Shown piece by piece: positions 9,348-29,004 of a stretch of 64,000 nucleotides of DNA. Source of the DNA: Pontiellaceae bacterium (GTDB lineage: Bacteria; Verrucomicrobiota; Kiritimatiellia; Kiritimatiellales; Pontiellaceae); the NCBI GenBank assembly GCA_016937945.1, contig JAFGVP010000102.1, positions 20,227-84,226 on the forward strand. The letters are read 5' to 3'. Position numbers and translations under genes: made by a program. The notes below the pieces were generated by a model. That model made no database searches. It was not told the origin of the DNA and was given only the letters and a program-made list of their open reading frames with translations. Every line of letters starts with the position of its first letter. Position 1 is the stretch's first letter.

Positions 9348-10043
9348 TCAGATCCCGCCCCACCACAGAGAATCATCAGAATAAGGTGCCTCGATAACAA
9401 ACGGCTTCTTGAGCGTGGGATGAACGATTTCCAGTCGGCGGTGATGCAGTGCGATTTCCCCCGTTTGGACGTTCTGACTGGCCCCGTATTTTTCGTCACC
9501 GGCAATCGGACATCCGATCGCAGAAAGCTGGGCACGAATCTGATGATAGCGACCGGTTTCCAGATCGACCTCCATCAGAGACAACGGCCCGACTGGTTTG
9601 ATGACCCGATAACTCAAAACGGCGCGCTGAGCTCCTTTATCACCTTCCCTGCACAAATTTGCCCGATGATGTTCATGGGACAGCCAATGGATCAATTTGC
9701 CTGCTGACCGCTCCGGCGATTGCTCGACCAACGCATGATAGATTTTCCGACAGTTACGATTACGCACATCCTCGTTCAGCCGCGTAAGCGCCTTGCTGGT
9801 GCGGGCAAAAAGAACAACTCCGCTGACTCCGCGATCAATACGATGCACGGCATTAAGAAAAACAGCACCCGGCTTTCCCTTGTCCACCCGGACCCACTCC
9901 CTTGCCCAGTCTTCCAGATTCCGAAGCCCCGTGCCGCTGTCCTGCGACAACAGCCCCGCCGGTTTATTCACCGCCAGCAGATGATTATCCGCAAATAACA
10001 CCAACGGGTTAAGGCCTTCAGCTTTGTAGGTCAAATCACTCAT
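9348..10043 (-). CDS. RluA-family pseudouridine synthase
   Basis: 'HRIDRGVSGVVLFARTSKA' catalytic-Asp motif and 'RYHQIRAQL' motif typical of RluA/RluC/RluD. Confidence 0.85.
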   Translation of the reverse strand: MSDLTYKAEGLNPLVLFADNHLLAVNKPAGLLSQDSGTGLRNLEDWAREWVRVDKGKPGAVFLNAVHRIDRGVSGVVLFARTSKALTRLNEDVRNRNCRKIYHALVEQSPERSAGKLIHWLSHEHHRANLCREGDKGAQRAVLSYRVIKPVGPLSLMEVDLETGRYHQIRAQLSAIGCPIAGDEKYGASQNVQTGEIALHHRRLEIVHPTLKKPFVIEAPYSDDSLWWGGI

Positions 10044-10124
10044 TATTAAAAAAAGAAATCACCAAGGCTCTGAGGCTCAATACAACAAGAATCTTTGTAC
10101 TTCCACGACCTCTGGGACTAAATC

Positions 10125-10970
10125 CTATTCGCTGATCCAGCGGGCCCAGTTTCCGTTCGGAAGCTCCATTGCTCCCGCATCACCGGTCAGTAGCATTTCC
10201 CCGCATTCAAACCGACCGGTATCATGATACTGCTCCAGCAGGTTGCGCAGAACGATCGGAGAGAATCCCGGCGTGTGTGATGTCAGCAACACAAAGGCGG
10301 GATCATCGGACAAAACCTGATGCACCAGATCAAGCGTCTCCATAAGACTCTCTTCGATCTTGTACAATTCCCCTTTTTTACCGCGTCCGAAGGATGGAGG
10401 ATCAAGCAGGATTCCGTCATAGCGGTTATCGCGCCGGACCTCGCGCCGCAGGAACTTAATAACATCATCGACGATCCAGCGGATTGGTGCATCCTGCAGC
10501 TCATTGAGCGCCGCATTTTCACGCGCCCAGTCCACCATGCCGCGCGAGGCGTCAAGGTGGCAGCATGCGGCACCGGACTGGGCGGCCGCCAGCGTCGCGC
10601 CCCCCGAGTAAGCAAACAGATTCAGGAATTTCAGTTCCCGTTTTTTCTTATCGCCCTGCCGCGTCAAGGAGCTTCGTATCCATTGCCAGAGAGCGCGTGT
10701 TTCGGGGAACACGCCGAGATGTCCAAAATCGGTGGCAGAGAGCTTCATCACTACGCCGGCAACCTCGACATTCCAGGTATCCGGAAGCGTGCCGCGCCCC
10801 TGCCAGTTCAATCCCTGATTCCGATCAAACCGGGCATCGGCTGTATTCCAGAGTTCAGGAAACTTCGGTTTCCAGACCGCCTGCGCACAGGGACGATCGA
10901 GAATTATGTCGCCGAAACGCTCCAGTTTTTTTCCGTTTCCGCTGTCCAGCAGATTGTATTGATCGGACAT
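10125..10970 (-). CDS. class I SAM-dependent RNA methyltransferase (RlmI/RlmK-like)
   Basis: 281 aa with '[14 protein letters not shown]' (SAM motif I-like) and a '[12 protein letters not shown]' motif typical of RlmI/YccW-type rRNA methyltransferases. Confidence 0.65.
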
Positions 10971-10984: not shown

Positions 10985-12118
10985 TTAAATTTTACGGGCG
11001 CGATCCTTGAACAGGCTGCCGAAAGAGTGCGAACGGCCGCCCATTCCGGAATGCGCAATGTTTACAAGAACCCCGATCATCGCGCCGGAAACCAGCAGGC
11101 TGGATCCGCCGTAGCTGATGAACGGCAACGCGAGCCCTTTGGTCGGCACGCAGCCGGTGACAACGGCAAAGTTGATCAGGGCCTGAATGGTAATCATCAG
11201 CGTGATTCCGAATGCAACGAACCGCCCGAAATCATCTTTAGCCTTGAAGGCTATTGCGAGCCCTAGAATGAAGAGTGTCAGGTAAAGCATGATCACAATC
11301 AGGCCCGCCATCAAACCGAGCTCTTCGCCGAGAATCGGAAAGATAAAGTCGGTATGAGCCTCCGGCAGATAGTGATATTTCTGCATGCTGTTTCCATAGC
11401 CCTGCCCGCGAAACCACCCATTCTGTCCTCCGCTGGCAAAAGCACGCAAGGCATTCACTAACTGCCATGCCTCATCCTGCTCATATTTCTGCGGATCGAG
11501 AAAGGCCATGATGCGTCCCATGCGCTCATGGTTCATGGCGATCATCCAGGCAACGCCCGTCAGCCCGCTTACACCAATCACCAGCAAAGGCGCAATTCCG
11601 GAACCCCCAAGAAACATCATACAGACGGCCACGCACGAAACCAGCAGCGTCGTCCCGAAGTCCGGTTCAATAATGATCAGCACCACAAAGCAGCCAAGCA
11701 TTCCGAACGGAATCAGGATTCCTCTGACAAATTCATTGATGCGTCGCTGGTTTCTGGAGAGCCACCATGCAAACAGCAGGATCACAGAAATCTTTGCCAG
11801 CTCCGACGGCTGAAAGGTAAATCCGGCCACACTGATCCATCGATGACTTCCGTTAATCTCGGGACAGAAGGCCCGCACAATCAGCAGCAGAATCAGTGTC
11901 ACAGCGGCCAATGGAATGGCAAGTCGCTGATAGATTCTGTAATCCAGCCGCGCAGCAATAACGGCGGCACAAAAAGAGAGCGCCAGCCATATCAGCTGGC
12001 GCATGGAATAGTACGAGGCATTCTCATACTTCGTGGAGCTGGCGCTGGCGAGAATCAGAATCCCCAGCGTAACAAGGATCAATACGACAGCAATAAACAG
12101 CGATATGGCTCTACGCAT
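10985..12118 (-). CDS. ftsW: FtsW (SEDS-family peptidoglycan polymerase / lipid II flippase)
   Basis: 377-aa polytopic membrane protein with SEDS hallmarks ('PSELAKI', 'EPDFGT', 'HTDFIF', 'GLALPFISYGGSS'). Sits in dcw context. Confidence 0.9.
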   Translation of the reverse strand: MRRAISLFIAVVLILVTLGILILASASSTKYENASYYSMRQLIWLALSFCAAVIAARLDYRIYQRLAIPLAAVTLILLLIVRAFCPEINGSHRWISVAGFTFQPSELAKISVILLFAWWLSRNQRRINEFVRGILIPFGMLGCFVVLIIIEPDFGTTLLVSCVAVCMMFLGGSGIAPLLVIGVSGLTGVAWMIAMNHERMGRIMAFLDPQKYEQDEAWQLVNALRAFASGGQNGWFRGQGYGNSMQKYHYLPEAHTDFIFPILGEELGLMAGLIVIMLYLTLFILGLAIAFKAKDDFGRFVAFGITLMITIQALINFAVVTGCVPTKGLALPFISYGGSSLLVSGAMIGVLVNIAHSGMGGRSHSFGSLFKDRARKI

Positions 12119-12136
12119 TGATCCCCTGCTGCTCCC

Positions 12137-13153
12137 TTATTCAGAAATCGGAATACGGATGCGGGTACCGCTCTGAACCTGACTTTCGTCCGTGATACCG
12201 TTGAGCTTCATGATCTCTTCCTTGCTCACCATGTAGACGCGGGCTACATCGTCAAGGGTTTCTCCCGGATAGAGGACATACTCGTCGAACACATCAACCG
12301 AAGGAGCTGTAGTAACAGTACCTTCGACCGGCTCTTCGACAACAGTTTCAGCCGGAGTCGTATCTGCCACGACCGGCGGAAGGTCAAACGGTACGTCATC
12401 AGATGCTTTCTTCGTCGTGGACGTCTTGGTTGTAGTGGTCGAGGTGGCAACGCTCTTCTTTGCAGTCGCCGAGCTCTTCTTCACACTGGAAGGAACTTTC
12501 CCGCCCGCCGGAATTGCAATTTCCTGACCGGCCCAGATTTTGTCGCCTTTGATTCCATTGACTCTGCGCAGCTCATCAATGCTGACGCCGGCGGCCACCG
12601 CAATCTCGGAAAGCGTATCCCCCTTCTTGATCGTGTACATTCCGGCCTTCTGCCCGGACGGAGCGACAGACGTAGTCGCTCCCGACTTAGCGGCTGAAGA
12701 CGCGTTACCATGGCCGGCAGGCACCTGAAGTTCCTGACCGACATAGAGTGTATCCGGATTCGAAAGATTGTTCATACGAACAAGATCCGCCGTGGTGGTA
12801 TCAAAACTAACGGCCAGTTGGGAAAGCGTGTCGCCCTTCTGAATGATATAGGTTTCCGTCGTGGAAACCGGAGTCAGGTCCGGCGTCAGATCGACCGCCG
12901 TGAAGGTCGTTTCGGTTGTCTCCGGCACATAAAGCGGGCCTTCACCAATCATGCCTTCATTACCAAAATTCACGTAGGGGTTCTGTACACTGGTTGCCAC
13001 GTCATTTTCCTTGCCCTTATGCTGGTGCTTGAAAGGGGCCTTGAGACGCGGCGCAGTTGCGGTTTCAGTTCCGGTGGTCAGACAGCCCTGAGTCAGGGAA
13101 AACGCACACAGCACGGCAGCATGAGCACCAACGACACTAAATTTAATCTTCAT
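12137..13153 (-). CDS. LysM-repeat lipoprotein (three LysM domains)
   Basis: Lipoprotein signal 'AVLCAFSLTQGC'. Three LysM motifs ('YIIQKGDTLSQLAVSF', 'YTIKKGDTLSEIAVAAGVS', 'YVLYPGETLDDVARVY'). Inserted between murD and ftsW. Confidence 0.85.
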   Translation of the reverse strand: MKIKFSVVGAHAAVLCAFSLTQGCLTTGTETATAPRLKAPFKHQHKGKENDVATSVQNPYVNFGNEGMIGEGPLYVPETTETTFTAVDLTPDLTPVSTTETYIIQKGDTLSQLAVSFDTTTADLVRMNNLSNPDTLYVGQELQVPAGHGNASSAAKSGATTSVAPSGQKAGMYTIKKGDTLSEIAVAAGVSIDELRRVNGIKGDKIWAGQEIAIPAGGKVPSSVKKSSATAKKSVATSTTTTKTSTTKKASDDVPFDLPPVVADTTPAETVVEEPVEGTVTTAPSVDVFDEYVLYPGETLDDVARVYMVSKEEIMKLNGITDESQVQSGTRIRIPISE

Positions 13154-13202
13154 AATAAACTCCTACATATAGATCGCGCTCACCCGAACGGCGATTCCGG
13201 TT

Positions 13203-14507
13203 TTACAAAGCATCCTTGTCGACCTTAAGAGCACGATTAAAAAGCGCCTCGAAACAGGCACCCCGCTCCTCGAAACTGCAGAACTGGTCAAAGCTTGCAC
13301 AGCCCGGGGAAAGCAGTATGGTTTCGCCTTCAGCGGCCGCACGTTCTGCCGTGTCGAAAGCCTGTTCCAGCGTATCGCATTCCACGCAGGAACAAACCAT
13401 GTTCCACGCCTGATACATTGCCTCCGATGCTTTCCCGATAAGGTATATCCTCGTCACCTGTTCCGCCAGTATTTCTTTTACAAAAGTGTAGTCAGTTTCC
13501 TTCGCCAGTCCCCCTGCAATCAGGTGAACGCCACCACTGCAGGCCTGAATACCCGCCGCCATCGCCGCGAGGTTGGTGGCCTTTGAATCGTTGATGTAGG
13601 TCACGCCGCCGATTTCACCCAGTCGTTGAAAGCGATGAGGCAGCGGCTCCAGTTGAAGCGCCGCCCGCCGGAAGGACACGGCATCCAGCGACAACGACAC
13701 AACCAGCCCGGCGACTGCCGCGCCGGTGCAGTCTCCCAGCACCGGCGTATCAAAAAGGCACCCCGAAAGATCAAGCACTGGGGCCTGTCCGGCCAGCACC
13801 CTGCCCGACTGATAACGGAAGTCGGAAGCATGGCCGGGGCCGAAGCTTACCCAGCGACGCTCCGGGCCGACAGCATCCCGAAACAACTCCAACCACGCAT
13901 CGGGCACGAGACAGATATCGTCGGGTCCTGCGCATTCGAACAATCGGGCCTTTGTCTTCCAGTAACCCTCCATGCTGCCGTGCCGATCCAGATGGTTGGG
14001 CAGAATATTTAGCACAATGGCCGCATCCGCGCGAAAAGACTGCACCGTTTCCAACTGAAAGGAGCTGACTTCCAGCACCAGCCAGTCCAGATCCGGCGAT
14101 TCCATCACGACTTCGCAGGCGGGAATCCCGTAATTACCGCCGATGGCGGAGCGCAGCCCCATATCACACAACGCCTCATGAATCCATTTCACCGCCGTGC
14201 TCTTGCCATTCGACCCCGTTACGGCAATGGTCCGGCCGCGATGTCGTGACCATCCCAGTTCAAACTCTGAGAGCAACGGAATGCCTTGCTCACGAACAGC
14301 ACAGAGCCAGGGATGATCCAGCGCAAAACCGGGACTGACAAGGCAAACATCAAATGCGTCATCCCTAAGAGCACAGGCCAAACCATCATCCCCGCCGGAC
14401 TCCCGGCTGACAACGAGGGTGCGCGCGCCTTCGGACTGCATCAGGCGTTCGGCGGCACGACCGCTCCGGCCGGCCCCGAGAATCAATGCATTGGAATAGG
14501 TCTGCAT
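13203..14507 (-). CDS. murD: UDP-N-acetylmuramoylalanine--D-glutamate ligase
   Basis: 'ILGAGRSGRAA' N-terminal Rossmann motif and 'VTGSNGKST' Mur ligase P-loop. Start overlaps the mraY stop (ATGA). Confidence 0.9.
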   Translation of the reverse strand: MQTYSNALILGAGRSGRAAERLMQSEGARTLVVSRESGGDDGLACALRDDAFDVCLVSPGFALDHPWLCAVREQGIPLLSEFELGWSRHRGRTIAVTGSNGKSTAVKWIHEALCDMGLRSAIGGNYGIPACEVVMESPDLDWLVLEVSSFQLETVQSFRADAAIVLNILPNHLDRHGSMEGYWKTKARLFECAGPDDICLVPDAWLELFRDAVGPERRWVSFGPGHASDFRYQSGRVLAGQAPVLDLSGCLFDTPVLGDCTGAAVAGLVVSLSLDAVSFRRAALQLEPLPHRFQRLGEIGGVTYINDSKATNLAAMAAGIQACSGGVHLIAGGLAKETDYTFVKEILAEQVTRIYLIGKASEAMYQAWNMVCSCVECDTLEQAFDTAERAAAEGETILLSPGCASFDQFCSFEERGACFEALFNRALKVDKDAL

Positions 14508-15649
14508 CAGCGGATCTTCAGAGTTGCCACACCGATCAGCGCAAAAATAATGGAAAGAATCCAGAACCGGGTAACAATCACGGTTTCAACCAGTTCCGGT
14601 GGGCGGTTTTCATCCATGGCGCGCTCCTTTTCGACAAACTCAAAATGGTGATGCAACGGAGCACACTTAAAGATGCGCCGGCCCTCCCCATACCGTTTCC
14701 GGGTATACTTAAAGAATGAACTCTGAATCATGACGCTGGCGGCCTCGATCACAAAAACGCCGCCCACGATAACCAGCAACAGTTCCTGCTTGATCAGGAT
14801 CGCAATCATGGCAATGGCGCCGCCCAGCGCTAGGCTGCCGGTATCGCCCATGAAAATTTTTGCCGGATGACAGTTAAACCAGAGGAAGCCCATTCCGGCA
14901 CCGAGCAGTGCGCCACAAAATACCGTCAGTTCACCGCTGCCGGGAACGTAAGGTACAAACAGATGCTCTTCCGCAAAAATTCGATGGCCGGCCACATAGG
15001 TCAGCACCAGATAGGCCCCGGCAACGGAATTTGAACAGCCGATGGCAAGGCCATCCAGTCCATCCGTGAGATTGACGGCGTTTGACGCGCCGACCAAAAC
15101 GAAGAACAGAAAGAGAAATCCGCCAATCAACCCCATGTTCAAGACAGGATACTTTACGAACGGCACCATCAACTCCTGCACATTCTGCCGTAGCACATCA
15201 TCCTGCCACAGGAACGAAAAGATAATGGCCGCCCAGACCACCTGCGCAAGAAACTTGGCCTTCACACTCAATCCGTTCCTGCGCTTGATCTTGAGATAAT
15301 CATCCGCAAACCCGATCAATCCCATGATGCAGAAGGTCAGCAACGTCAGCACGACCTGCAGATTCATCAGTTCAGACCACAGCATCGTGGAAATCGATGC
15401 GGAGATAATAATCAGAAACCCGCCCATCGTCGGCGTCCCGACCTTCCCGCTTTTATTCAATGCACCGACGCGTTCATCCACCTTCTGCTCATCAATGTTA
15501 AACTGGCGCAGCCGGCGAATCAGGCCGGGAGCGTAGAGCAGCGAAAATATAAAAGCCGTGGCAGCCGCACATAGCGTGCGGAAGGTGATATAGCTGAAAA
15601 TGTTCAGCGGCGTAAAGTAGCGATCAAGCTCGTGCAGATAATACAGCAT
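14507..15649 (-). CDS. mraY: phospho-N-acetylmuramoyl-pentapeptide transferase
   Basis: 380-aa polytopic protein with MraY motifs ('GTPTMGG', 'NAVNLTDGLDGLA', 'MGDTGSLALGG'). Confidence 0.9.
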   Translation of the reverse strand: MLYYLHELDRYFTPLNIFSYITFRTLCAAATAFIFSLLYAPGLIRRLRQFNIDEQKVDERVGALNKSGKVGTPTMGGFLIIISASISTMLWSELMNLQVVLTLLTFCIMGLIGFADDYLKIKRRNGLSVKAKFLAQVVWAAIIFSFLWQDDVLRQNVQELMVPFVKYPVLNMGLIGGFLFLFFVLVGASNAVNLTDGLDGLAIGCSNSVAGAYLVLTYVAGHRIFAEEHLFVPYVPGSGELTVFCGALLGAGMGFLWFNCHPAKIFMGDTGSLALGGAIAMIAILIKQELLLVIVGGVFVIEAASVMIQSSFFKYTRKRYGEGRRIFKCAPLHHHFEFVEKERAMDENRPPELVETVIVTRFWILSIIFALIGVATLKIR

Positions 15650-15652
15650 GCG

Positions 15653-16981
15653 TCAGTTCTCCCTGAAAAATGTCAAAACCTGTTCCAGCCGCTCACCGCG
15701 CGATGCCTTGAGCAGCACACGATCGCCGGCGGAAAGGTGATCTTTTAAAATCTGCGCAGCCTCAGCTGCGTCATTACAATGAAATGTTTGTTCACAGCCG
15801 CCGGAAACAATCAGCCGCCCGAGCTGTCCGACCGTAATCAGTCCATCAAACTGCAGCTCATCAATGAGGCGTCCCAGCGCGGCATGTTCCTCTTCGGACG
15901 TATCACCCAGTTCGCGCATGCCGCCGACCACCGCCCACCTCTTCCCGGGAACCTGAAGGGTGGCATAGGTTTGCAGTGCGGCCTTCATCGAAAGCGGGTT
16001 TGCATTGTAGGCATCGTTAATAAATCCGACGCCGTTAATCTCCGATTCCTGCCAACGCATGGCCGCCGGCCGGAAACGGCGAAGCCCTTCGGCAATCTCG
16101 TCCGGAGCCATCCGCAATTCAAGCCCCAGCGCAATCGCCCGCAGGGCGTTGCGCATAATGTGTTCACCAGGCAACGGCATAATGTAATCGAACCCGTTCA
16201 CATTCATCACGCCGGAACCCACGCGCCGGCCCACGTAGTCACCGATTCCTTCAAACGAAATCGAAACCACATTGGCGCAGGTCAGCCGCCGCGTGACGGT
16301 ATACCACTCGCTGTCCCGATCAAGGATCACCATGCCGGATGAGGGAACCCGCTCCGCCAGCTTGGACTTTTCCCGAGCAATATCCTCGAGTGAATCAAAG
16401 TTCATCCGATGGGCGTTGCAGATATCGGTCAGGATGGCGATTTTCGGCTGCAGCAGATATGCAAGCTCACTGATTTCACCGGGATGGTTCATGCCGATTT
16501 CAAACACCCCGTAGCGGGCCGCCTGCGGCATACTCAGCATACTGAGCGGCAATCCAATATGATTGTTGTAATTGCCGGCCGTACGATGTGTCTCTCCGCT
16601 CACGGAAAGAATGGCAGCACACATTTCCTTCACGGTTGTCTTGCCGACACTGCCGGTGATTCCGATCGGAACCCCCAACCATTTTTTCCGATATCCGCGT
16701 GCCAGATCCTGCAGTCCGCGAATCGTGTCCGGCACCCGGAGAATCGGATTCGAGCTCCAACTGAAACCCTCCTCCACCAGCGCGCCGGACGCACCCTTTT
16801 CGAATGCCACGCCCACGAAGTCATGCCCGTCAAAATGTTCACCCCGAATAGCCACATAAAGGTCGCCGCGTTGCAGCTTCCGGGTATCCTGGGTCACGCC
16901 GCACACCCGCCCTTCCGGAATGCCGTTGCTCCACATGCGCGACACCCACTGCGATAACTCTCCTGAACGAAATTCCGGCAT
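15653..16981 (-). CDS. murF: UDP-MurNAc-tripeptide--D-alanyl-D-alanine ligase
   Basis: 'ITGSVGKTTVKEM' P-loop in a Mur ligase fold. Position between murE and mraY. Confidence 0.85.
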   Translation of the reverse strand: MPEFRSGELSQWVSRMWSNGIPEGRVCGVTQDTRKLQRGDLYVAIRGEHFDGHDFVGVAFEKGASGALVEEGFSWSSNPILRVPDTIRGLQDLARGYRKKWLGVPIGITGSVGKTTVKEMCAAILSVSGETHRTAGNYNNHIGLPLSMLSMPQAARYGVFEIGMNHPGEISELAYLLQPKIAILTDICNAHRMNFDSLEDIAREKSKLAERVPSSGMVILDRDSEWYTVTRRLTCANVVSISFEGIGDYVGRRVGSGVMNVNGFDYIMPLPGEHIMRNALRAIALGLELRMAPDEIAEGLRRFRPAAMRWQESEINGVGFINDAYNANPLSMKAALQTYATLQVPGKRWAVVGGMRELGDTSEEEHAALGRLIDELQFDGLITVGQLGRLIVSGGCEQTFHCNDAAEAAQILKDHLSAGDRVLLKASRGERLEQVLTFFREN

Positions 16982-18438
16982 TATCCTACAATCTCCCGTA
17001 CCACTTCCCGATCATCAAACGGCACGATTGAACCCCGGCTTTCCTGATAGGTTTCGTGTCCTTTCCCGGCCACCAGCAGCAGATCCCTGCGGTGCATAAT
17101 TTCGATTCCGCGCCGGATGGCATCCCGTCGATCGAGAATCACTTCATACTTCGCCGGATCGTCGTAACCAACCAAAATATCCGTTGCAATAAGCGCCGGC
17201 TCTTCGCTGCGCGGATTATCCGAAGTAATAATGGAATAGTCGGCCAGCTCCGAGGCCACTGCACCCATTTTTTTCCGCTTGCCCCGATCCCGGTCGCCGC
17301 CGCACCCGAACACCACAATCAGGCGGCCCTTGCAGATTTCCCGCAGGGTACTCAACACGTTTTTCAGGGCATCATCGGTATGGGCATAGTCGACAAAAAT
17401 ACGCAGGCCCCGACGATTGGGAACCAGCTCCAGCCGTCCGGGCACCGTTTTGAGCGAGGACAGGGAATGAACGATTCGATCAAAGGGAACGCCCATCAAT
17501 CCGCCGACCGCCAGCGCCGCCAGCGCATTGTGCACATTAAACCGGCCCAGCAGCTTCAGGTTCACACGCGCTTTTCCCCACGGGGAAACCACCTTGAAAA
17601 CCGTCCCGTGCACCCCCAGCTTCATCTTCAGCGCCCGCACCTGCGCCTGCTCCCCGAATCCATAGGTCACCACCGCCGATTCCGGAGCATGCGCCTCCGT
17701 GAGCCGTTGGCCCCATGGATCGTCGACATTGATCACCGCTGAATGCCCAGCCATGCGTTCCATCCAGTCAAACATGCGCGCCTTGGCTTCAAAGTATTCC
17801 TCCATGCTGTTATGGAAATCCAGATGGTCCTGCGTGAGATTGGTAAACACGCCGATCTTAAAATGAATCCCGAAGACCCGCTCCAGCGCAATGGAATGCG
17901 ACGAAACCTCCATTACCGCACTGCGACAGCCGTGATCCAGCATCTGGCGAAGGAATGAATGCAGTTCCGGCGCCTCCGGCGTCGTCCGCCACGCCGGAAT
18001 GGTACGATTTCCGATCTCATACGCCACGGTACCCAGCAGGCCGGCCTCAATCCCGTTCTCGCGCAGGATATTGCGGATCATGTAGGTCGTGGTGGTTTTC
18101 CCGTTTGTGCCGGTTACGCCGATCACATCCATCTGATCCGTAACATGCCCGAACAGCGCACACGAAAGTTCCGCCAAAGCCCGACGGGCGGATCCGACGC
18201 GTACAAACGCCGAGTCATGCCCGAGATCCAGATGCGCCTCAGAAACAACCGCCACCGCACCTTTCGACAGGGCATCGACTACAAATTCGGCACCGTCCGT
18301 GTGTACTCCGGGAACCGCCACGAACAGGAATCCCGGCTTTACCTGTCGAGAATCCTGGGTAATTCCGGCAATTTCGACACCGGTGTTCCCGTAGACTTCC
18401 AGTGTTGTTATGAATTCAAGCAGTTCCTTCAGTTTCAT
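16981..18438 (-). CDS. murE: UDP-MurNAc-L-Ala-D-Glu--2,6-diaminopimelate ligase
   Basis: 'VTGTNGKTTTTYM' P-loop, 'DNPR' motif and Mur ligase architecture. Translationally coupled to ftsI and murF. Confidence 0.85.
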   Translation of the reverse strand: MKLKELLEFITTLEVYGNTGVEIAGITQDSRQVKPGFLFVAVPGVHTDGAEFVVDALSKGAVAVVSEAHLDLGHDSAFVRVGSARRALAELSCALFGHVTDQMDVIGVTGTNGKTTTTYMIRNILRENGIEAGLLGTVAYEIGNRTIPAWRTTPEAPELHSFLRQMLDHGCRSAVMEVSSHSIALERVFGIHFKIGVFTNLTQDHLDFHNSMEEYFEAKARMFDWMERMAGHSAVINVDDPWGQRLTEAHAPESAVVTYGFGEQAQVRALKMKLGVHGTVFKVVSPWGKARVNLKLLGRFNVHNALAALAVGGLMGVPFDRIVHSLSSLKTVPGRLELVPNRRGLRIFVDYAHTDDALKNVLSTLREICKGRLIVVFGCGGDRDRGKRKKMGAVASELADYSIITSDNPRSEEPALIATDILVGYDDPAKYEVILDRRDAIRRGIEIMHRRDLLLVAGKGHETYQESRGSIVPFDDREVVREIVG

Positions 18439-20252
18439 TCGTTCGGCCTCACGACATAAATCCGCTCACCATCCGGCGCAATCCGCAGATAGCGCACCGC
18501 AAATTCAGCAATCTCCTGAAAAGCCGGACCACACACCGTTCCGCCATGCAGCCCGCGTATACGACCGTTTTCATACGTTTTCACAGGGTCGTCGGCCACC
18601 ACGATAATGCCGATTTCCGGATCTTCAGCAGGAAGAAAGCCGCCGAACGAAGACCAAAAACGCTGGCCATAATATCCTCCGCCCTCCTCCTTCGGACGAA
18701 TCTTCTGCGCCGTACCGGTTTTTCCGGCCACCGAATAACCTTCCACCTGAGCCTTAACCCCGGTGCCGCCATCTTCCGTCACGCGCATGAGGAGTTTCCG
18801 CATCTGCTTCGCCGCACGGGGAGATAGGGGCCGCCCGAGCTCTTCCGGCTTGTTTTCCAGAATAATGCTACCATCTGCCGCCACCACTTTTTTCACGACG
18901 TAGGGCTTCATCTGAACTCCGTTCAGGGCAATGGCATCGAGCATGGAAAGCATCTGCAGTGCCGTTGCGGAAACCTCCTGGCCCATGCCGATGCGCGTAA
19001 TACTGATCTTGGACCAGCGGGAAACCCGGTTCAGGATACCGCCCTCTTCCCCCGGCAGGCCGACGCCGAGCGGACTCCCGAAATGAAACGCCTTCATGCT
19101 GTCATAGGTCGCCTCGTTTCCCATCATCATGGCAATCTTGGCCGTACCGATGTTGCTGGAATATTTAACGACATCCGCCACATCCAGCTCTTCGTATTCA
19201 TGCGTATCTTCAAGCTTGGCCCCGCCGTACCGCCAGTAACCACCCTCGACATCAATCATATCGTTGGTCTGTACCACGTTGCGCTCAAGAGCGCTGGAGA
19301 TCAGCGCCGCCTTCATCACCGACCCCGGCTCATAGTTATAGCTGATCGCATTGTTCCGCATCCACTCCGGCGGCGCATGCGAATAGCGGTTCAGGTCATA
19401 AGTCGGAAACGAAGCCATCGCAAGAATCTCACCGGTGCGGACTCGCTGAACGATGGCCCAGACACCCTTTGCATTGAATTCGTGACAAGTCCGTTCAACG
19501 GCTTTTTCCACAACATACTGAAGCTGCTGATCGAGCGTGAGCATGACCGTGGCCCCGTCTTCCGGCGGAATATCCACGCGCCGGCGATTATAGATTTCGC
19601 GCCGGCGTCCATCGGTCGTGCTGATGCGAAGTCCTTCCTTACCCCGCAGAAATTCATCAAACCGTTGTTCAATGCCGGCACTGCCGACCCCCTCCAGATT
19701 AGAGAACCCGACCACGTGCGCCATCAGGGCCCCTTTGGGATAGTGCCGGATCGAAGTCTCCTCCATCTTGACCCCGCGAAGGTAAATATTGGTCGAGCCA
19801 TCCGGCAGCGGATCACGCGGCGTATAGACCGCCCCGAACGCGCGACGCTCGAAGCGCTTAAGCCGATGCTCAGGAACATATTTCTTGATGGCCACCCACT
19901 GCCGTCTGGTGTCGGACAGGTATTCGCGCATCGTCTCTTCCGGAATACTGAACTCTTCGGACAGATAATGAATCACCGCCTCGGCATCACCGCTTTCATG
20001 AATATATTTCGGATCGAGCGTTACGTGATAGGCGGTCCGGTCGATCGCGAGGATCTCTCCGTTGCAGTCGACAATCTGTCCACGTCGGCCAACCGGCTTT
20101 TCCTCAAGCGTGCGTTGCTCCTGAATCGGCTTGATAATCCATTCGTCCGGACGAAGCTGAACCAGACAGAGCCGAACGGAAATCCCGAGAAAGACGAGTA
20201 CAAGCAGGCCTGCCAGAACCCCAATTCTTCCTTTGTACCGAACTTCCGCCAT
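18435..20252 (-). CDS. ftsI: peptidoglycan D,D-transpeptidase FtsI (class B PBP)
   Basis: PBP dimerisation and transpeptidase domains ('SVMKA' = SxxK, 'SSN', 'KTGT'). The ORF track begins at a TTG at 20282; the first ATG with a GGAGGG Shine-Dalgarno is at 20252. Confidence 0.85.
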   Translation of the reverse strand: MAEVRYKGRIGVLAGLLVLVFLGISVRLCLVQLRPDEWIIKPIQEQRTLEEKPVGRRGQIVDCNGEILAIDRTAYHVTLDPKYIHESGDAEAVIHYLSEEFSIPEETMREYLSDTRRQWVAIKKYVPEHRLKRFERRAFGAVYTPRDPLPDGSTNIYLRGVKMEETSIRHYPKGALMAHVVGFSNLEGVGSAGIEQRFDEFLRGKEGLRISTTDGRRREIYNRRRVDIPPEDGATVMLTLDQQLQYVVEKAVERTCHEFNAKGVWAIVQRVRTGEILAMASFPTYDLNRYSHAPPEWMRNNAISYNYEPGSVMKAALISSALERNVVQTNDMIDVEGGYWRYGGAKLEDTHEYEELDVADVVKYSSNIGTAKIAMMMGNEATYDSMKAFHFGSPLGVGLPGEEGGILNRVSRWSKISITRIGMGQEVSATALQMLSMLDAIALNGVQMKPYVVKKVVAADGSIILENKPEELGRPLSPRAAKQMRKLLMRVTEDGGTGVKAQVEGYSVAGKTGTAQKIRPKEEGGGYYGQRFWSSFGGFLPAEDPEIGIIVVADDPVKTYENGRIRGLHGGTVCGPAFQEIAEFAVRYLRIAPDGERIYVVRPNE

Positions 20253-20284
20253 GCTCTGTGCATTCCCTCCTGATAACGACAAAA

Positions 20285-20312
20285 CCCGCCCCCTGCATGG
20301 CAGGGCGGCGGG
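20285..20312 (-). terminator. GC-rich hairpin + T-tract between ftsL and ftsI (intrinsic terminator/attenuator-like)
   Basis: On the minus strand: CCCGCCGCCCTGCCATGCAGGGGGCGGG followed by TTTTGTCGTT, then the ftsI Shine-Dalgarno GGAGGG and ATG. Confidence 0.4.
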
Positions 20313-20337
20313 AGCGCGACTTCACGCATAGTCCCGC

Positions 20338-20715
20338 CTACTGGCGCATATACGACCGTGTATCCGCCTGCGCCGTGCGACCGGAAGCGTCCCACGGACC
20401 AAGCTTTACAATCTGCGATTCGCGCGGCATCTGCATATCCAGATTAAACTTGCGAATGGCCTGACGCAGGTTGGAGGGTGAGGTCATCATCGACCAGCGT
20501 TCCTGCTCATTATTAAAACGTTTCTGGGCGGCGGCCAGTTCCGCCTCCTTGCCCTTGATCTCGCGGCCCAGCGCATCGCAACGGGCGCACAGCCACATAT
20601 AGCTCAGACCGAGAACAGCAACGAGCACCAGCACATTCGCCAGCACCACAGGGAACGGCACCTGCACCTGATTTTTCTTTTTCTTTCTGATGGTTCTCTT
20701 TTTCTTCGCTACCAT
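20338..20715 (-). CDS. ftsL: FtsL-like cell-division protein
   Basis: 125 aa with a Lys-rich N-terminus, a single TM helix ('VVLANVLVLVAVLGL') and a coiled-coil. Lies between rsmH and ftsI. Confidence 0.7.
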   Translation of the reverse strand: MVAKKKRTIRKKKKNQVQVPFPVVLANVLVLVAVLGLSYMWLCARCDALGREIKGKEAELAAAQKRFNNEQERWSMMTSPSNLRQAIRKFNLDMQMPRESQIVKLGPWDASGRTAQADTRSYMRQ

Positions 20716-20716
20716 T

Positions 20717-21733
20717 TTACACCCCCACGCGCACTGCGCGCAATTTGGCCGAACGAGATCTCGGATTTTCGGCCAATTCCTCCTCCGTCGCTGTCTTCGG
20801 TTTTTTCCAAACCCACTCTACCGGCGGTTCCTGATAAATGCGCCGGACTCCGCCCTGATGCAGCGACTCTTCGCGCGGCACATGGCGACTGAAAAACTGT
20901 TTAACCAATCGATCCTCCAGGCTGTGAAAGGTCAGTACGGCAATGCGCCCGCCTTCGACCACCCGACCGATCATTCCTTCCAATACCTGCTCAATACCCG
21001 CCAGCTCATCGTTGACCGCCATGCGAAGCGCCTGGAACGTCTGCGTTGCCGGATGGGTTTTGCGTCCCTTCCGACCGCCCTTGGCCCGTTCAACAATTCC
21101 TGCCAGCTCCAGCGTGGTTTCGATCCGCCCGTTTGCACGCGCCTCCACAATGGCCCTCGCAATACGGCGGGACATACGATCTTCACCATACCGGAAAATA
21201 ATATCCGCCAGCTCCTGCTCACCCGCTTCGTTCACCAGATCCGCCGCTGTCGGGCCGCCGCTGCGATCCATCCGCATATCGATCGGCGCATCCTGCTGAA
21301 AGCTGAAGCCGCGCTCCGCCTCGTCGAGCTGAAACGAGCTCACACCGAGATCGAGCAGAATTCCGTTAACCTTCTCAATCCCAAGCCGGTCAAGCTGAGC
21401 GGCCATGTTTGCATAGTTGTCATGAACGAGTTCCACCCGCTTTCCGGCGCCGGACCTCAGCCGTTCACCGACCCGCTGGATGGCGTCGATATCGCGATCA
21501 AACCCGACCAGCATGCCGCCCTCACCCAGTTGTTCCAGAATCTTTCCGGCATGACCGCCATTGCCCAGCGTCCCATCCACATAGATTCCGGAAGAATCAA
21601 TATTCAGGGCCTCAAGACACTCATTCAACATGACGGGAATATGCACTAGTGTTTCTGCTCCTCGTGCGTGCGTTCCATTACATCGCTCTTCTGCCGACCA
21701 AAACTCCAATGGCGCGAATCGCCATGAAGACAC
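20717..21733 (-). CDS. rsmH: 16S rRNA (cytosine1402-N4)-methyltransferase RsmH/MraW
   Basis: 'HIPVMLNE...GIYVDGTLGNGGHAG' RsmH signature. The ORF starts with GTG at 21733; the conserved N-terminus begins near the ATG at 21631 or GTG at 21643, so the true start may be there. Confidence 0.8.
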   Translation of the reverse strand: MSSWRFAPLEFWSAEERCNGTHARGAETLVHIPVMLNECLEALNIDSSGIYVDGTLGNGGHAGKILEQLGEGGMLVGFDRDIDAIQRVGERLRSGAGKRVELVHDNYANMAAQLDRLGIEKVNGILLDLGVSSFQLDEAERGFSFQQDAPIDMRMDRSGGPTAADLVNEAGEQELADIIFRYGEDRMSRRIARAIVEARANGRIETTLELAGIVERAKGGRKGRKTHPATQTFQALRMAVNDELAGIEQVLEGMIGRVVEGGRIAVLTFHSLEDRLVKQFFSRHVPREESLHQGGVRRIYQEPPVEWVWKKPKTATEEELAENPRSRSAKLRAVRVGV

Positions 21734-21872
21734 GAAAACAAATGACCTCGATCTACCATCGAAAGGTTGAAAAAGCGCTCCCCCTCAGAGGACAGGTCGA
21801 CCGATCTCGAATAACTTAAGAAACGGGCCACATCCAACATGCTCATCGCTCTCTCCTTTATTTACCCCGGGT

Positions 21873-22307
21873 TCAATACCCACCAAAAAATACATTTTCC
21901 GCCGCGGAGGAATCCTGTGGCAGTGCAAGGTCAAAATTCTCGGCACTCCACAGCTCGATCCGCGTCATGGCGCCCACCAGCACCACCTGATTCTTAACCT
22001 CAACATGCGCCAGCAGGTTTTCGCCGATGCGGACGCGCCCCTGAGCATCCCACACCAGCATTTCCGCGCCGGCAGTAATAGAGCGAACCGCCTGCTCGTC
22101 CTGCCGGTCCAGCGCGCCTCCCGAACGCAGCGCATCAAGGCGCCGCATCATCTCGGCCGCGGTATACAGGTAGAGGCACTTCTGCTCAGGATGTGGAAAT
22201 GCATAGAGCTGATTCGGCTCTCCGGCCAGGCTTCGCCAGGTGGACGGAAAGATCATACGGCGCTTGGCATCAAGGGAATGCGTAAACGATCCCACAAACA
22301 AAGCCAT
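21873..22307 (-). CDS. mraZ: transcriptional regulator MraZ
   Basis: 'MALFVGSFTHSLDAKRRMIFPSTWR' matches the MraZ N-terminal consensus (M-F-x-G...D-x-KGR). Duplicated MraZ half-domains. The ORF track extends to a TTG at 22355; I place the start at the ATG at 22307. Confidence 0.8.
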   Translation of the reverse strand: MALFVGSFTHSLDAKRRMIFPSTWRSLAGEPNQLYAFPHPEQKCLYLYTAAEMMRRLDALRSGGALDRQDEQAVRSITAGAEMLVWDAQGRVRIGENLLAHVEVKNQVVLVGAMTRIELWSAENFDLALPQDSSAAENVFFGGY

Positions 22308-22712
22308 TCTATCCAAACCAACCATTTCCATGGATATCACCCCACAATACTCCAATTAGTGGGAAGTTATGCCACCACACTCCACCAGCGTCAACCCATA
22401 TTCCCGCTTTTTTACGGACCCCGCGCCCGTCCCTATCTCCATAAATAAACGTGATTTAGGGAAAAATACCGACCCATACGAAAGCGCGCCGGAGTCGTCA
22501 GAACAAGCCATCAATCGTCGCCACCCTCCTCCACCCTTCTCCACCACCGGCCCCCACCAGGCAAAATCCGGGATAGTTGATAAAATTTGTACAATTTAGG
22601 TATTTTAATGCTGAAATAGCCGGGCGCCTGTGTTTTAAATTGCCGAAACTAAGGAAAAGCTCACAAAGAACCGCCGATCCATGTGCCGTGATCGCTTTAA
22701 GGGAGAGCATGC

Positions 22713-24527
22713 GTGAAACCGACAGACACGAGTAATCCGGAGTATTTTCACAAGGTTGTAGACTGCCAATATGCCTGTCCGGCGCACACTCCGGTTCCGG
22801 AATACATTCGCCTCATTGCCGCCGGACGCTACGCCGACGCTTATATGATCAACTGGGAGTCCAATGTATTTCCCGGCATTCTCGGCCGAACCTGCGACCG
22901 CCCCTGCGAACCCGCCTGCCGCCGCGGACGCGTGGAAGACAAGCCGGTCGCCATCTGCCGGCTCAAGCGGGTATGTGCCGACATGAAGGACGATATCCGC
23001 TCCCGTCTGCCGAAAATTCCGAAAGAAAAAAACGGACTCCGAATTGCCCTGATCGGCGCCGGCCCCTCCGCCCTGACCGTTGCACGCGACCTGATGCCGC
23101 TGGGCTATACAATTGATCTGTTTGAAGCCGCGCCCAAGGCCGGCGGCTTCATGCGCCAGCAGATTCCATCCTTCCGGCTCCCGGAAGAGGTGATCGACGA
23201 AGAAACCGGCTACATTCTCGACATGGGCGTGAATGCTCATTTCAACACCCGGATTGAAAGCATGAAGGCGCTGATTGAGGATGGATATGACGCCGTTTTC
23301 GTGGGAACTGGTGCTCCGACGGGCCGGAACCTGAAACTTCCGGGATATGAAGAGCAGACCCAGAATTCGGTATTTATCGGTGTTGAATGGCTGGCACAGG
23401 TTGCTTTCGGACATCTTACCGAAGCCCCGCGCGATGTGATTGTGATCGGCGGCGGCAATACCGCCATGGACTGCTGCCGCACTGCGCTGCGCCTCGGCGC
23501 CGAAAACGTGAAGGTGCTCATTCGCACCCCGATCGATGCCATGGTGGCTTCGCCTTGGGAAATCGAAGATACTCGGGCCGAAGGCATTCCTATTCTGGAA
23601 AATCACAGTCCGTTGGAATACATCGTCGAGAACGGCCAGCTGAAGGGAATGAGTTTTGAAATCATCGAATATTCGATGACCGAAGACGGCAAAGAGGTTT
23701 TCACGCCGACCGGACAGCTTGAAACCATTCCATGCAGCATGGTCCTGCTGGCGATCGGACAGGCAAACGCGTTCCCATGGATCGAGCGGGATCTGGGAAT
23801 CGAATTCAACGACAACGGACTGGCGAAGGTGGACGACATTACCTTCCAGTCAACCCTTCCGAAGGTCTTTTTCGGGGGCGACGCCGCATTCGGGCCTCGC
23901 AATATTATTACAGCCGTTGCACAGGGTCATGCCGCGGCGCTTTCGATCGATCTGTTCCTGAAGGGAAAGGATCTCGAAGAACGGCCGGCGCCGGGAACCA
24001 ATCTGGTCAGCCAGAAAATGGGCATTCACGACTGGAGCTACGCAAGCATGGTTACCGAGGAGCATCGCCATGCGGTTCCTCATGTCGATCTCGACAAGGC
24101 GATTCACAGTCACAAGGTCGAGGTGGAGCTTGGTTTCGATGCCAAAACCGCATTCGAGGAAGCGCAACGCTGCCTGAACTGCGACGTTGAAACCGTCTTT
24201 TCGGCCAATAAGTGCATCGAATGCGACGCCTGTATCGACATCTGCCCGGTGGACTGCCTTACCTTTACCGATAACGAAGAGGAGGCCGCACTGCGCAAAA
24301 AGCTGAATGTGCCGGCCCATAACCTTTCGCAACCGCTGTTTGTATCCACCGAAGTAGGCACCGGACGCATCATGGTAAAGGACGAGGATGTCTGCCTCCA
24401 TTGCGGACTCTGTGCGGAACGCTGCCCGACCTCCGCATGGGACATGCAGAAATTCCTCTACATTCAGACCAAGGCCTTTAACGCCGAATCAAACCAAGCC
24501 AACCCCACACAAGCTGAGATCCAATGA
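22713..24527 (+). CDS. NAD(P)H-dependent FAD oxidoreductase, GltD-like, with C-terminal 2x[4Fe-4S] ferredoxin domain (OFOR-associated)
   Basis: N-terminal Cys cluster, 'IALIGAGPSAL' and 'VIVIGGGNTAMDC' dinucleotide-binding motifs, C-terminal 'CIECDACIDICP' / 'CLHCGLCAERCP'. GTG start with a GGGAGAG Shine-Dalgarno. Stop overlaps the korA start. Confidence 0.8.
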   Translation: MKPTDTSNPEYFHKVVDCQYACPAHTPVPEYIRLIAAGRYADAYMINWESNVFPGILGRTCDRPCEPACRRGRVEDKPVAICRLKRVCADMKDDIRSRLPKIPKEKNGLRIALIGAGPSALTVARDLMPLGYTIDLFEAAPKAGGFMRQQIPSFRLPEEVIDEETGYILDMGVNAHFNTRIESMKALIEDGYDAVFVGTGAPTGRNLKLPGYEEQTQNSVFIGVEWLAQVAFGHLTEAPRDVIVIGGGNTAMDCCRTALRLGAENVKVLIRTPIDAMVASPWEIEDTRAEGIPILENHSPLEYIVENGQLKGMSFEIIEYSMTEDGKEVFTPTGQLETIPCSMVLLAIGQANAFPWIERDLGIEFNDNGLAKVDDITFQSTLPKVFFGGDAAFGPRNIITAVAQGHAAALSIDLFLKGKDLEERPAPGTNLVSQKMGIHDWSYASMVTEEHRHAVPHVDLDKAIHSHKVEVELGFDAKTAFEEAQRCLNCDVETVFSANKCIECDACIDICPVDCLTFTDNEEEAALRKKLNVPAHNLSQPLFVSTEVGTGRIMVKDEDVCLHCGLCAERCPTSAWDMQKFLYIQTKAFNAESNQANPTQAEIQ

Positions 24528-26365: not shown

Positions 26366-26376
26366 CGGAGATCCCC

Positions 26377-27429
26377 ATGAGCTACAAAATTCCCGGCTTC
26401 CGCCACCCCAACCTTCCGAAAAACGAGCTCGGCTATACGACCAAGGATTATGAAGGGGCCGTATCCACCCTCTGCGCCGGATGCGGGCACGATTCCATCA
26501 GTGCCGCGATCATCGAGGCCTGCTTCGAAATGTCGATCCAGCCGCATCGTGTGGCCAAACTTTCCGGCATCGGCTGCTCCTCAAAAACGCCGACCTACTT
26601 TCTGGGAAACTCCCACGGATTCAATTCGGTACACGGGCGCATGCCGTCGGTCGCAACCGGCGCAAACATGGCCAACCGAAACATGCTCTATGTCGGTATT
26701 TCCGGCGATGGCGACACCGCATCGATCGGCATGGGACAGTTTGTTCACGCAGTCCGGCGCAATGTCAACATGGTCTATATCTGCGAAAACAACGGCGTTT
26801 ACGGCCTGACCAAAGGACAGGATTCGGCCACGACGGATATTGGATCGAAAAGCAAGAAGGGCGAGCCCAACGCCCTTGAACCGATCAACCTGTGCGCGAT
26901 TGCCCTGCAGCTCGGCGCCACCTTCGTGGCAAACAGTTTCTCGGGCGACAAAAGTCAGCTCGTACCGATCATCAAAGCGGCCATCGCCCATCAGGGTTTC
27001 TCGTTTATCAACGTGATATCCCCCTGCGTAACCTTCAACAACGTTGTGAGTTCCACAAAGTCATACGACTATATCCGGCAGCATATGGCATCCACCAACT
27101 CCGTGGATTATGTGCCGCCGGCCTCGGAAATCACCACCGAGTATGAGCCCGGCACGACAGAACGGGTGACCATGCATGACGGCTCCGTCATTAGCCTGCA
27201 TAAACTTGATCCCAATCTGGACATCCACAGCCGCCGCTCGGCGCTGGAAATGATCTATGAATACAGTGCGCAGGATAAAGTACTGACCGGCGTGCTGTTT
27301 ATTGATCCCGACGCCGACGAAATCCACAAGACGATGAACACGACAACCACACCGCTGAGAAACCTGACTGAAAAGGAACTTTGCCCCGGAGCGGCGGCAC
27401 TGGAAACCATCAATGAGCTGCACCGCTGA
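26377..27429 (+). CDS. korB: 2-oxoacid:ferredoxin oxidoreductase subunit beta (TPP-binding, KorB-like)
   Basis: 'GCGHDSI', 'GIGCSS', 'GDGDTASIG' TPP-binding motifs. Confidence 0.85.
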   Translation: MSYKIPGFRHPNLPKNELGYTTKDYEGAVSTLCAGCGHDSISAAIIEACFEMSIQPHRVAKLSGIGCSSKTPTYFLGNSHGFNSVHGRMPSVATGANMANRNMLYVGISGDGDTASIGMGQFVHAVRRNVNMVYICENNGVYGLTKGQDSATTDIGSKSKKGEPNALEPINLCAIALQLGATFVANSFSGDKSQLVPIIKAAIAHQGFSFINVISPCVTFNNVVSSTKSYDYIRQHMASTNSVDYVPPASEITTEYEPGTTERVTMHDGSVISLHKLDPNLDIHSRRSALEMIYEYSAQDKVLTGVLFIDPDADEIHKTMNTTTTPLRNLTEKELCPGAAALETINELHR

Positions 27430-27739: not shown

Positions 27740-28231
27740 GACTCCGTGACTCCATCAAATATTCTCTGACATATTCTATAGCATAGCCCATGCCGTTCCG
27801 GATGGGAACCGAACGAACTCGCAGCGAAACCATCCCGAATAACCTGAGTCACGGGGGGAACGGAAACACATTCCCATTCACCCTCCCGCCCATGTCGGTT
27901 CAGTTTATCCGGATCAAGGCGGAATAACCGGAAAACAGATTCCATTTTCCCGCACGGGAAAACCCATTTTTTGATGCCTGCACGACATGTTTCGCACGGA
28001 AACACAGAATCGACGAAGGTCTTACAAAAGCCCCATGAGGTTATAATTGAGATAATGGGACCAACACATATCATGTCTTCAAATCAAACACTTGAACTTG
28101 GTTTCAATTATTTGATTAGAAGTGGACAAATATATTGCGTGCATATATATGTGTATAAAATTTTCGGTCAGGGTTTGGTACCCACCGAGTGTCATCCCGG
28201 AACGAACCGGGAGCAAACGAAAGGAAAAGCT

Positions 28232-28912: not shown

Positions 28913-29004
28913 CTCCACCATGGCTCCGCAGAGCACGGAATCCGGCTTTTTTAAGTCTCCGTGCCCGCGTGTGCCCGCTTACTGAATCGAACAGGGAGCG
29001 AGTC

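Follow-up and report, generated by a model that had tools for sequence, protein, structure and literature searches.

Gene content and layout of the locus

The 64,000-nucleotide stretch of DNA analysed here ("the window") is part of contig JAFGVP010000102.1 (assembly GCA_016937945.1) and holds the proximal half of the division and cell wall (dcw) gene cluster of a Pontiellaceae bacterium (Kiritimatiellota), in which a gene for a protein with three LysM modules lies between murD and ftsW. Genes were identified from a mechanical listing of open reading frames (ORFs) and from Pfam and NCBIfam scans (table 1). The proximal block mraZ-rsmH-ftsL-ftsI-murE-murF-mraY-murD lies on one strand in canonical order, and it is as tightly coupled as a preliminary description of this DNA had stated, with overlapping reading frames at mraY/murD and murE/murF (1 nt each) and at ftsI/murE (4 nt). 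The listed mraZ frame opens with a TTG, and the true start probably lies about 17 codons further on. The ftsL-like gene has no Pfam match and reaches 18.4 bits, under the cutoff, with NCBIfam FtsL_COG5462; its product has a basic tail followed by a transmembrane segment and a coiled coil, and the gene is kept at the same position in relatives with 64–73% identity. The ftsW product is FtsW at the equivalog level (TIGR02614, 349.8 bits versus a cutoff of 337.5) and falls under the cutoff of the RodA model TIGR02210 (289.8 versus 336.7 bits).

The canonical adjacency of murD and ftsW is broken in the window by the three-LysM gene, which the preliminary description had placed there and in which Pfam finds PF01476 in three stretches. 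The intergenic gaps are 49 nt (murD-LysM), 18 nt (LysM-ftsW) and 14 nt (between ftsW and a downstream methyltransferase gene), and these three gaps contain no terminator-like hairpins in a scan whose overall yield was not above the shuffled expectation. From this operon-like spacing and the absence of terminator-like sites in it, murD, the LysM gene and ftsW are probably co-transcribed.

The same description had the cluster stop after ftsW, and it does so: Pfam recognises no murG, murC, murB, ddl, ftsQ, ftsA or ftsZ across the 52 longest-ORF picks of the 64-kb window, a tblastn search of the window with late dcw proteins of Opitutales gives no match to murG...ftsZ, and dcw genes are absent from the 10 kb past the window's right end. 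In their place ftsW is followed by genes for an S-adenosylmethionine (SAM)-dependent methyltransferase, whose NCBIfam matches to RlmK/L and RlmI are all under cutoff, and for an RluA-family pseudouridine synthase. These two had been called unrelated genes, which is correct in that neither has a recognised dcw function, but they are not random neighbours, since both recur at this place across the Kiritimatiellales (below).

Spread of murD-LysM-ftsW and the breaks around it

Loci for comparison were gathered in three ways, through named homologues of the LysM protein, through a scan of one genome per GTDB species with an alignment of the family, and through FtsW homologues picked regardless of LysM, and the window's dcw proteins were then mapped onto all of the fetched loci. 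The LysM protein has more than 120 full-length homologues with 42–57% identity and about 100% coverage, those from named sources being from Pontiella, Pontiellaceae and Kiritimatiellales. The arrangement murD-LysM-ftsW is whole in 24 loci, and in six more it is interrupted solely where the contig ends; all 30 are labelled as Kiritimatiellota, Verrucomicrobiota or unclassified "uncultured bacterium". Among them are five strains of Pontiellaceae in culture and further Kiritimatiellota, as well as Opitutales and one subdivision-3 verrucomicrobium. Conservation of synteny in relatives had been proposed as a check on the gene, and in every relative examined it occupies the same position. On the other hand, murD or ftsW adjoins none of the 57 LysM loci that the same scan found in other phyla, among them Bacillota, Proteobacteria and Gemmatimonadota. 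The LysM gene is also present in all three loci that were retrieved through FtsW only (strain S94, in the 4.1-Mb record CP036201.1, Pontiella agarivorans, and a 148-kb Joint Genome Institute contig), and a scan of metagenomes with the FtsW protein gave one short locus, L085, which carries LysM-ftsW. The longer order murD-LysM-ftsW-methyltransferase(-RluA) occurs in the isolate genomes of P. desulfatans, P. sulfatireligans, P. agarivorans and strain S94 and in many independent metagenome-assembled genomes (MAGs).

Two profile searches add little to this distribution: one made with the LysM orthologues of Verrucomicrobiota matched almost only marine Opitutales, and in one made with the family alignment against a library of 50%-identity representatives the top 150 matches were long multi-repeat LysM proteins, which makes it uninformative about orthologues in Verrucomicrobiales and Lentisphaerota. 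In one Pontiella MAG (L015, positions 10001–10919) the LysM match spans only residues 19–219 and leaves 330 nt unaligned before ftsW; the third LysM module there may be frameshifted or divergent.

The preliminary description had likened the locus to the fragmented dcw clusters of the Planctomycetes-Verrucomicrobia-Chlamydiae (PVC) superphylum, to which the host indeed belongs; its LysM and FtsW proteins are 100% identical to NCBI entries from a Pontiellaceae MAG. The LysM gene, however, is not tied to fragmentation; it is present in the fragmented cluster of the window, but Opitutales carry it within a complete mraZ...ftsZ cluster. In the Opitutales locus L046 Pfam identifies the order mraZ-rsmH-(ftsL)-ftsI-murE-murF-mraY-murD-three-LysM gene (358 amino acids)-ftsW-murG-murC/B-ddl-ftsQ-ftsA-ftsZ, and by tblastn the loci L052, L067, L050 (Oceanipulchritudo) and L031 (a subdivision-3 MAG) also continue from murG to ftsZ, with no match to murC/B in L050 and none to ftsQ in L031. 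In L050 (Oceanipulchritudo sp., 11954–14018) ddl stands directly after murG with no murC/B fusion between them, unlike the other Opitutales loci, and in L031 only the MurB-like part of the fusion was matched, at 40% coverage.

Behind the ftsW genes of Kiritimatiellota the picture is different. No locus of this phylum has murG...ftsZ there by tblastn. Wherever a Kiritimatiellales locus extends far enough past ftsW, the next gene is that of the methyltransferase (PF10672); the RluA gene, with which the block conserved in Kiritimatiellales ends, comes after the methyltransferase gene in all of these loci except that of P. desulfatans. The methyltransferase and RluA genes overlap in L086–L088, and in L086 and L087 the methyltransferase gene starts 3 nt past ftsW. 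With rsmH near its start and these two genes at its end, the operon thus begins and ends with RNA-modification genes. Other genes lie behind ftsW in the deeper Kiritimatiellota locus L019 and in the unclassified L018 and L026. The break after ftsW is present in more than 20 independent assemblies, isolate genomes included, and so is not the misassembly that the preliminary description had allowed for.

The cluster has also been opened upstream of murD. The link to mraZ...mraY is lost in P. desulfatans (L001) and P. sulfatireligans (L003), and in L019 (Kiritimatiellaeota NIOZ-UU71) about 6.9 kb with three ORFs (1330, 320 and 332 amino acids) separate mraY from murD. The sole unit to survive all of these rearrangements is murD-LysM-ftsW. 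The DNA before murD in L001 and L003 encodes a major facilitator superfamily transporter in one and a HicAB module in the other.

Because the LysM gene sits in a cluster that runs on to ftsZ in those Verrucomicrobiota loci that have enough downstream sequence, the gene appears to be old and the break after ftsW to have come later. Judged by these gene orders, the LysM insertion predates the split of Kiritimatiellota from the sampled verrucomicrobial orders, and the cluster was cut off after ftsW by a later rearrangement that affected Kiritimatiellota as a whole. By its phyletic profile the dcw gene set, ftsZ included, is highly conserved in Kiritimatiellota (PMC12283558), so the distal genes would lie elsewhere in the genome and would not be lost; the cluster is split rather than reduced.

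The LysM protein and its proposed role

We aligned 28 Kiritimatiellales sequences of the LysM protein (A1), 11 diverse ones (A2) and 22 that span Kiritimatiellales and Opitutales (A4). All three alignments have a common layout: a basic N-terminus of 2–4 residues, a hydrophobic segment, 60–80 poorly conserved residues, and the LysM modules, of which the first two are about 25 residues apart and the third follows a linker rich in Pro, Ala, Ser and Thr. In the window protein PF01476 scores 138 bits against a cutoff of 20.9. The AlphaFold2 model (built on A4) has a helix at residues 3–20 and beta-alpha-alpha-beta LysM modules at 98–144, 168–214 and 288–334, these with a predicted local distance difference test (pLDDT) score above 90; most of the linker sequence scores under 50, and the model has no other folded part. 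Catalytic, LytM and SPOR domains are absent from the Pfam and NCBIfam results and from this model, and the idea of a hidden catalytic domain was rejected on that account.

In the N-terminal anchor a His and a Cys, 13 residues apart, are invariant in the 22 sequences of A4 (Kiritimatiellales, Opitutales and others), and the Cys is invariant in 11 of 11 sequences of A2; this shared pair, together with the common layout of an anchor and three LysM modules, marks the family as orthologous beyond a merely promiscuous LysM fold. The two residues are His11 and Cys24 in the window protein, whose lipobox is LTQGC. Tested with a PROSITE-type core pattern, the window protein MKIKFSVVGAHAAVLCAFSLTQGC fits the lipobox core, as do 28 of 28 Kiritimatiellales sequences and those of L017, L018, L019 and L026. 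"Lipoprotein", the name given in the preliminary description, is therefore a reasonable label for the window protein, the support for it being that of a pattern match. The corresponding Opitutales segment (from L046, L052, L067, L050 and L024 and the proteins P0121–P0240) is almost invariant, MKL(T/S)K(I/V)FGIVLSLHVGVILLVMFQP(G/S)CQT, and this and the invariant His suggest that the anchor is more tightly constrained than a mere export signal would be. Short lineage-specific juxtamembrane motifs, VTTESQGSGRGAGARHKGPWKHEHKGK in Pontiellaceae and FN...PTRPxxGEL(I/F)VP in Opitutales, lie within the poorly conserved stretch, and the Opitutales orthologues have in addition an acidic C-terminal tail, FF(K/N)...(E/D)RP(I/V)ID, which is absent from Kiritimatiellota.

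LysM modules bind glycans that contain N-acetylglucosamine, the peptidoglycan backbone included. The LysM gene product is predicted to be exported and tethered to the membrane, in Kiritimatiellales most likely by a lipid on Cys24 after cleavage by LspA, and to have no catalytic domain. Its periplasmic part would consist of three glycan-binding modules on long disordered linkers, and several modules on flexible linkers should give multivalent binding. We propose that the protein, made together with FtsW, serves at the division site as a multivalent tether to peptidoglycan, and that it may keep the FtsW-FtsI synthase, partner hydrolases or the outer membrane in place on newly made septal glycan. 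A separate and later rearrangement in Kiritimatiellota would have moved murG...ftsZ elsewhere and, in Kiritimatiellales, set the rRNA-type methyltransferase and RluA synthase genes right behind ftsW. A membrane-tethered, non-enzymatic binder is the most economical reading given the terminator-free packing of the genes and a linkage kept across deep divergence. The LysM gene is thus probably no chance insertion and a lineage-wide helper of septal wall synthesis, and we put the probability of the whole explanation (an old murD-LysM-ftsW unit, a membrane-tethered septal peptidoglycan binder that acts with FtsW, and a later split of the cluster) at roughly 0.6.

An indirect hint that the gene matters comes from Verrucomicrobium spinosum, in which a single unnamed gene, VSP_RS19445, separates ftsW (VSP_RS36295) from murD (VSP_RS36300); the latter two tags replace the missing 19440 and 19450, with murG at 19435 and mraY at 19455 (PMC12283558). 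Older locus tags in PMC4803751 agree, with two genes between murG and murD. VSP_RS19445 was classed as essential by transposon sequencing (Tn-seq), with an insertion index of 0.016 (PMC12283558). Its position, together with the LysM genes marked in verrucomicrobial ftsW neighbourhoods (PMC4803751), makes it likely to be the LysM orthologue.

Several points weigh against our proposal. The divisome or peptidoglycan-binding role is read from synteny and domain content, and the profile of the LysM family gave 153,621 matches at E≤1e-3, many of them general envelope proteins, so that with modules this ubiquitous the operon position is no proof of a division-specific role. No named NCBIfam family is reached, the matches to ActS, DipM, NlpD and MltD being through LysM only and far under the cutoffs. 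The Opitutales sequence FQP[SG]C, with Pro at -2, fails the lipobox rule, which makes the mode of anchoring uncertain, and it may differ between the lineages. The V. spinosum gene is identified by position, not by sequence, and a transposon in it would also be polar on ftsW and murG, so that "essential" may not describe the gene itself; the call is for this reason only suggestive. Finally, the location of murG...ftsZ elsewhere in Pontiellaceae is taken from the published phyletic profile (PMC12283558).

The alternative that survives best, although we hold it to be unlikely, is that the protein ties peptidoglycan to a membrane all around the cell, as an analogue of Lpp, Pal or LysM-type stabilisers of the envelope, and that its gene sits in the dcw cluster only for co-expression with wall synthesis. 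LysM proteins are very common and functionally diverse, and this one has only LysM modules, with no catalytic or recognisable protein-interaction domain. Moreover, if it is lipidated, the +2 residue after the Cys (Leu, Val or Ala) would mean transport to the outer membrane and separation from FtsW, although the E. coli lipoprotein sorting rules behind this argument are possibly not transferable. A general tether does not, however, account well for a linkage that is specific to murD and ftsW and has survived at least three kinds of rearrangement, nor for the invariant His and Cys and the near-invariant Opitutales anchor, which exceed what a plain export signal needs.

A bolder possibility, which we consider doubtful, makes the LysM protein an essential, lineage-specific core component of the divisome that stands in for FtsN, its anchor and motif engaging FtsW-FtsI or FtsQLB and its LysM modules sensing septal glycan; if this were true, a clade with no known FtsN would couple the activation of septal synthesis to the condition of its wall. 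Its specific form, in which an inner-membrane transmembrane helix and juxtamembrane motif activate FtsQLB-FtsWI, LysM replaces SPOR, and the divisome of Verrucomicrobiota and Kiritimatiellota requires the protein as a late component, we regard as quite doubtful. The architecture is that expected of such a trigger, with an anchor, a short lineage-conserved motif (GARHKGPWKHEHKGK in Pontiellaceae, FN...PTRPxxGEL(I/F)VP in Opitutales), a disordered linker and peptidoglycan-binding domains; the anchor His and Cys are invariant, the Opitutales lipobox is non-canonical, and the gene adjoins ftsW. The essential call for the V. spinosum gene at the same position and the lack of ftsN from the dcw gene set profiled for PVC bacteria (PMC12283558, Table 1 therein) would also fit. 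Yet the cytoplasmic tail, through which FtsN binds FtsA, is only 2–4 residues long in Kiritimatiellales and Opitutales, the canonical lipobox in 28 of 28 Kiritimatiellales sequences predicts that the helix is cleaved off, the juxtamembrane motifs differ between Kiritimatiellales and Opitutales, and the essentiality call is perhaps due to polarity in a gene assigned by position only. An assembly or binning artefact (a chimeric contig), for which the origin of the window from a MAG might speak, or a recent neutral passenger insertion is refuted by the comparative data, namely the same gene order in isolate genomes and many independent MAGs and a LysM family conserved at full length with 42–57% identity and invariant motifs.

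How bacteria can rebuild their division machinery is studied in nature chiefly through the PVC group, in which some members have no FtsZ and some no peptidoglycan, and in which dcw clusters are fragmented. That fragmentation is well known, and LysM proteins are of a known kind. The published surveys of dcw clusters in PVC bacteria track the canonical genes only, and one further gene travels with murD and ftsW. Our literature search found no paper that treats LysM proteins, the dcw cluster and verrucomicrobial bacteria together, none that mentions VSP_RS19445, and none that places a LysM gene between murD and ftsW, traces its spread, describes its anchor or proposes a role for it. The gene is a concrete candidate for a factor of the late divisome or septal wall that has so far been missing, and V. 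spinosum and Akkermansia are now genetically tractable, which makes it directly testable; existing Tn-seq data may even have marked it as essential. Both events, the insertion of the LysM gene and the split of the cluster, can be used as synteny markers in the Verrucomicrobiota-Kiritimatiellota lineage.

Neighbouring genes

A few kb downstream of the RluA gene lies a low-GC island (0.47 versus about 0.55 elsewhere), which includes a type II D12 adenine methyltransferase gene and the genes for SspB and SspC, parts of the Ssp DNA-phosphorothioation defence system; SspA, SspD and SspE were not recognised among the window ORFs scanned. A long ORF with no Pfam or PADLOC match stands between this island and the RluA gene. 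On the other side of the cluster, the oxidoreductase genes that diverge from mraZ are consistent with an anaerobic lifestyle. Beyond them is an unusual, membrane-stress-like block that starts with three tandem PspA/IM30 paralogues, and further on a group of genes that looks like a lipid-modification cluster. Near the right end a minus-strand longest-ORF pick is probably spurious; the matching NCBI contig has a plus-strand dihydroorotate dehydrogenase gene (PF01180) there (L084, 8493–9407).

Table 1. Features of the 64-kb window, with positions counted from its first nucleotide
Feature	Position	Strand	Evidence or content
Low-GC island	158–6216	minus	
Type II D12 adenine methyltransferase	158–1177	minus	In the low-GC island
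SspC	2261–5308	minus	PADLOC, 1153 bits
SspB	5305–6216	minus	DUF4007
ORF of 578 amino acids	7204–8940	plus	
Methyltransferase/RluA synteny block	9348–10970		Also in loci L003–L006, L010, L014–L016 and L086–L088
RluA-family pseudouridine synthase	9348–10043	minus	PF00849; TIGR00005 subfamily match
SAM-dependent methyltransferase	10125–10970	minus	PF10672; resembles RlmI, RlmK and RlmL catalytic domains
ftsW, septal peptidoglycan polymerase of the SEDS (shape, elongation, division and sporulation) family	10985–12118	minus	PF01098, E 7.5e-99; TIGR02614
Three-LysM protein (338 amino acids; 1017-nt gene)	12137–13153	minus	PF01476 in three stretches, E 9e-41
murD	13203–14507	minus	TIGR01087, 320.8 bits versus cutoff 211.95
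mraY	14507–15649	minus	PF00953
murF	15653–16981	minus	Mur ligase domains
murE	16981–18438	minus	Mur ligase N, M and C domains
ftsI, class B penicillin-binding protein transpeptidase	18435–20282	minus	PF00905 and PF03717
ftsL-like, bitopic protein	20338–20715	minus	Position, architecture, weak NCBIfam match
rsmH (mraW), 16S rRNA m4C1402 methyltransferase	20717–21733	minus	PF01795, E 3.1e-105
mraZ	21873–22355	minus	PF02381; TIGR00242 matches residues 19–152
2-oxoacid:ferredoxin oxidoreductase-type set	22713–27429	plus	Pyr_redox_2/Fer4_20 flavoprotein, POR/POR_N and TPP_enzyme_C subunits
Membrane-stress-like block	27971–42123	plus	
Three PspA/IM30 paralogues	27971–30296	plus	Followed by 219- and 680-amino-acid proteins without Pfam match
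ATPase of 1708 amino acids	33074–38200	plus	DUF3686/DUF7902/AAA
Protein of 1271 amino acids	38308–42123	plus	Transglutaminase/DUF3857
Putative lipid-modification cluster	49656–53956	plus	Glutathione peroxidase, lipocalin, amine-oxidase-like flavoprotein, DUF1365, cyclopropane-fatty-acid synthase
Longest-ORF pick of 322 amino acids	60487–61455	minus	No Pfam match

Comparison with known systems

The window shares with the canonical dcw cluster the order of its first eight genes and of ftsW, with frames that overlap or nearly abut, and differs from it in the extra gene between murD and ftsW, in the detachment of the distal murG...ftsZ genes, and in the methyltransferase and RluA genes that stand in their place. 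The Opitutales cluster has kept the extra LysM gene and, unlike the window, the distal half as well. Naqvi et al. 2016 (PMC4803751) mark LysM-containing genes in ftsW-murG-murB/C neighbourhoods of Verrucomicrobiales and Methylacidiphilales in the legend of their Figure 7B. These probably belong to the same family, but they appear only as a symbol in the figure legend: the paper neither analyses them nor places them with respect to murD, suggests no function for them, and does not cover Kiritimatiellota.

Among characterised proteins, DipM of Caulobacter and NlpD and ActS of E. coli are LysM and LytM (M23) proteins that regulate amidases and lytic transglycosylases at the division site, and DipM, NlpD and FtsN (LysM or SPOR proteins) do comparable septal-peptidoglycan jobs in Proteobacteria. 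DipM, NlpD and ActS resemble the window protein in being exported (NlpD and ActS are also lipidated) and in having N-terminal LysM modules that target septal peptidoglycan, and it is through LysM that the window protein matches their NCBIfam models, with scores of 79 (cutoff 375) for ActS, 61 (900) for DipM and 44 (311) for NlpD. It differs from them in that neither Pfam nor the AlphaFold2 model shows a LytM/Peptidase_M23 domain, and to our knowledge none of the three is encoded inside a dcw cluster. FtsN, DedD and DamX follow the same logic as the window protein, with an N-terminal anchor, a short periplasmic motif, a disordered linker and C-terminal modules that bind septal peptidoglycan. 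In the window protein, however, these modules are LysM and not SPOR (for which it has no Pfam or NCBIfam match), the cytoplasmic tail is essentially absent, the lipobox predicts removal of the helix, and there is no sequence similarity. Membership in NlpD, DipM, ActS, MltD or FtsN was accordingly rejected, the defining domains being absent.

The best sequence matches in the PDB are to individual LysM modules only, those of Bacillus subtilis LytE (8i2e), Cladosporium Ecp6 (4b8v), Thermus thermophilus P60 (4uz2, 4uz3) and Enterococcus faecalis AtlA (2mkx). These proteins carry catalytic domains or are secreted effectors, and none is an anchored protein encoded in a dcw cluster; their modules support glycan binding as the predicted activity of the window protein.

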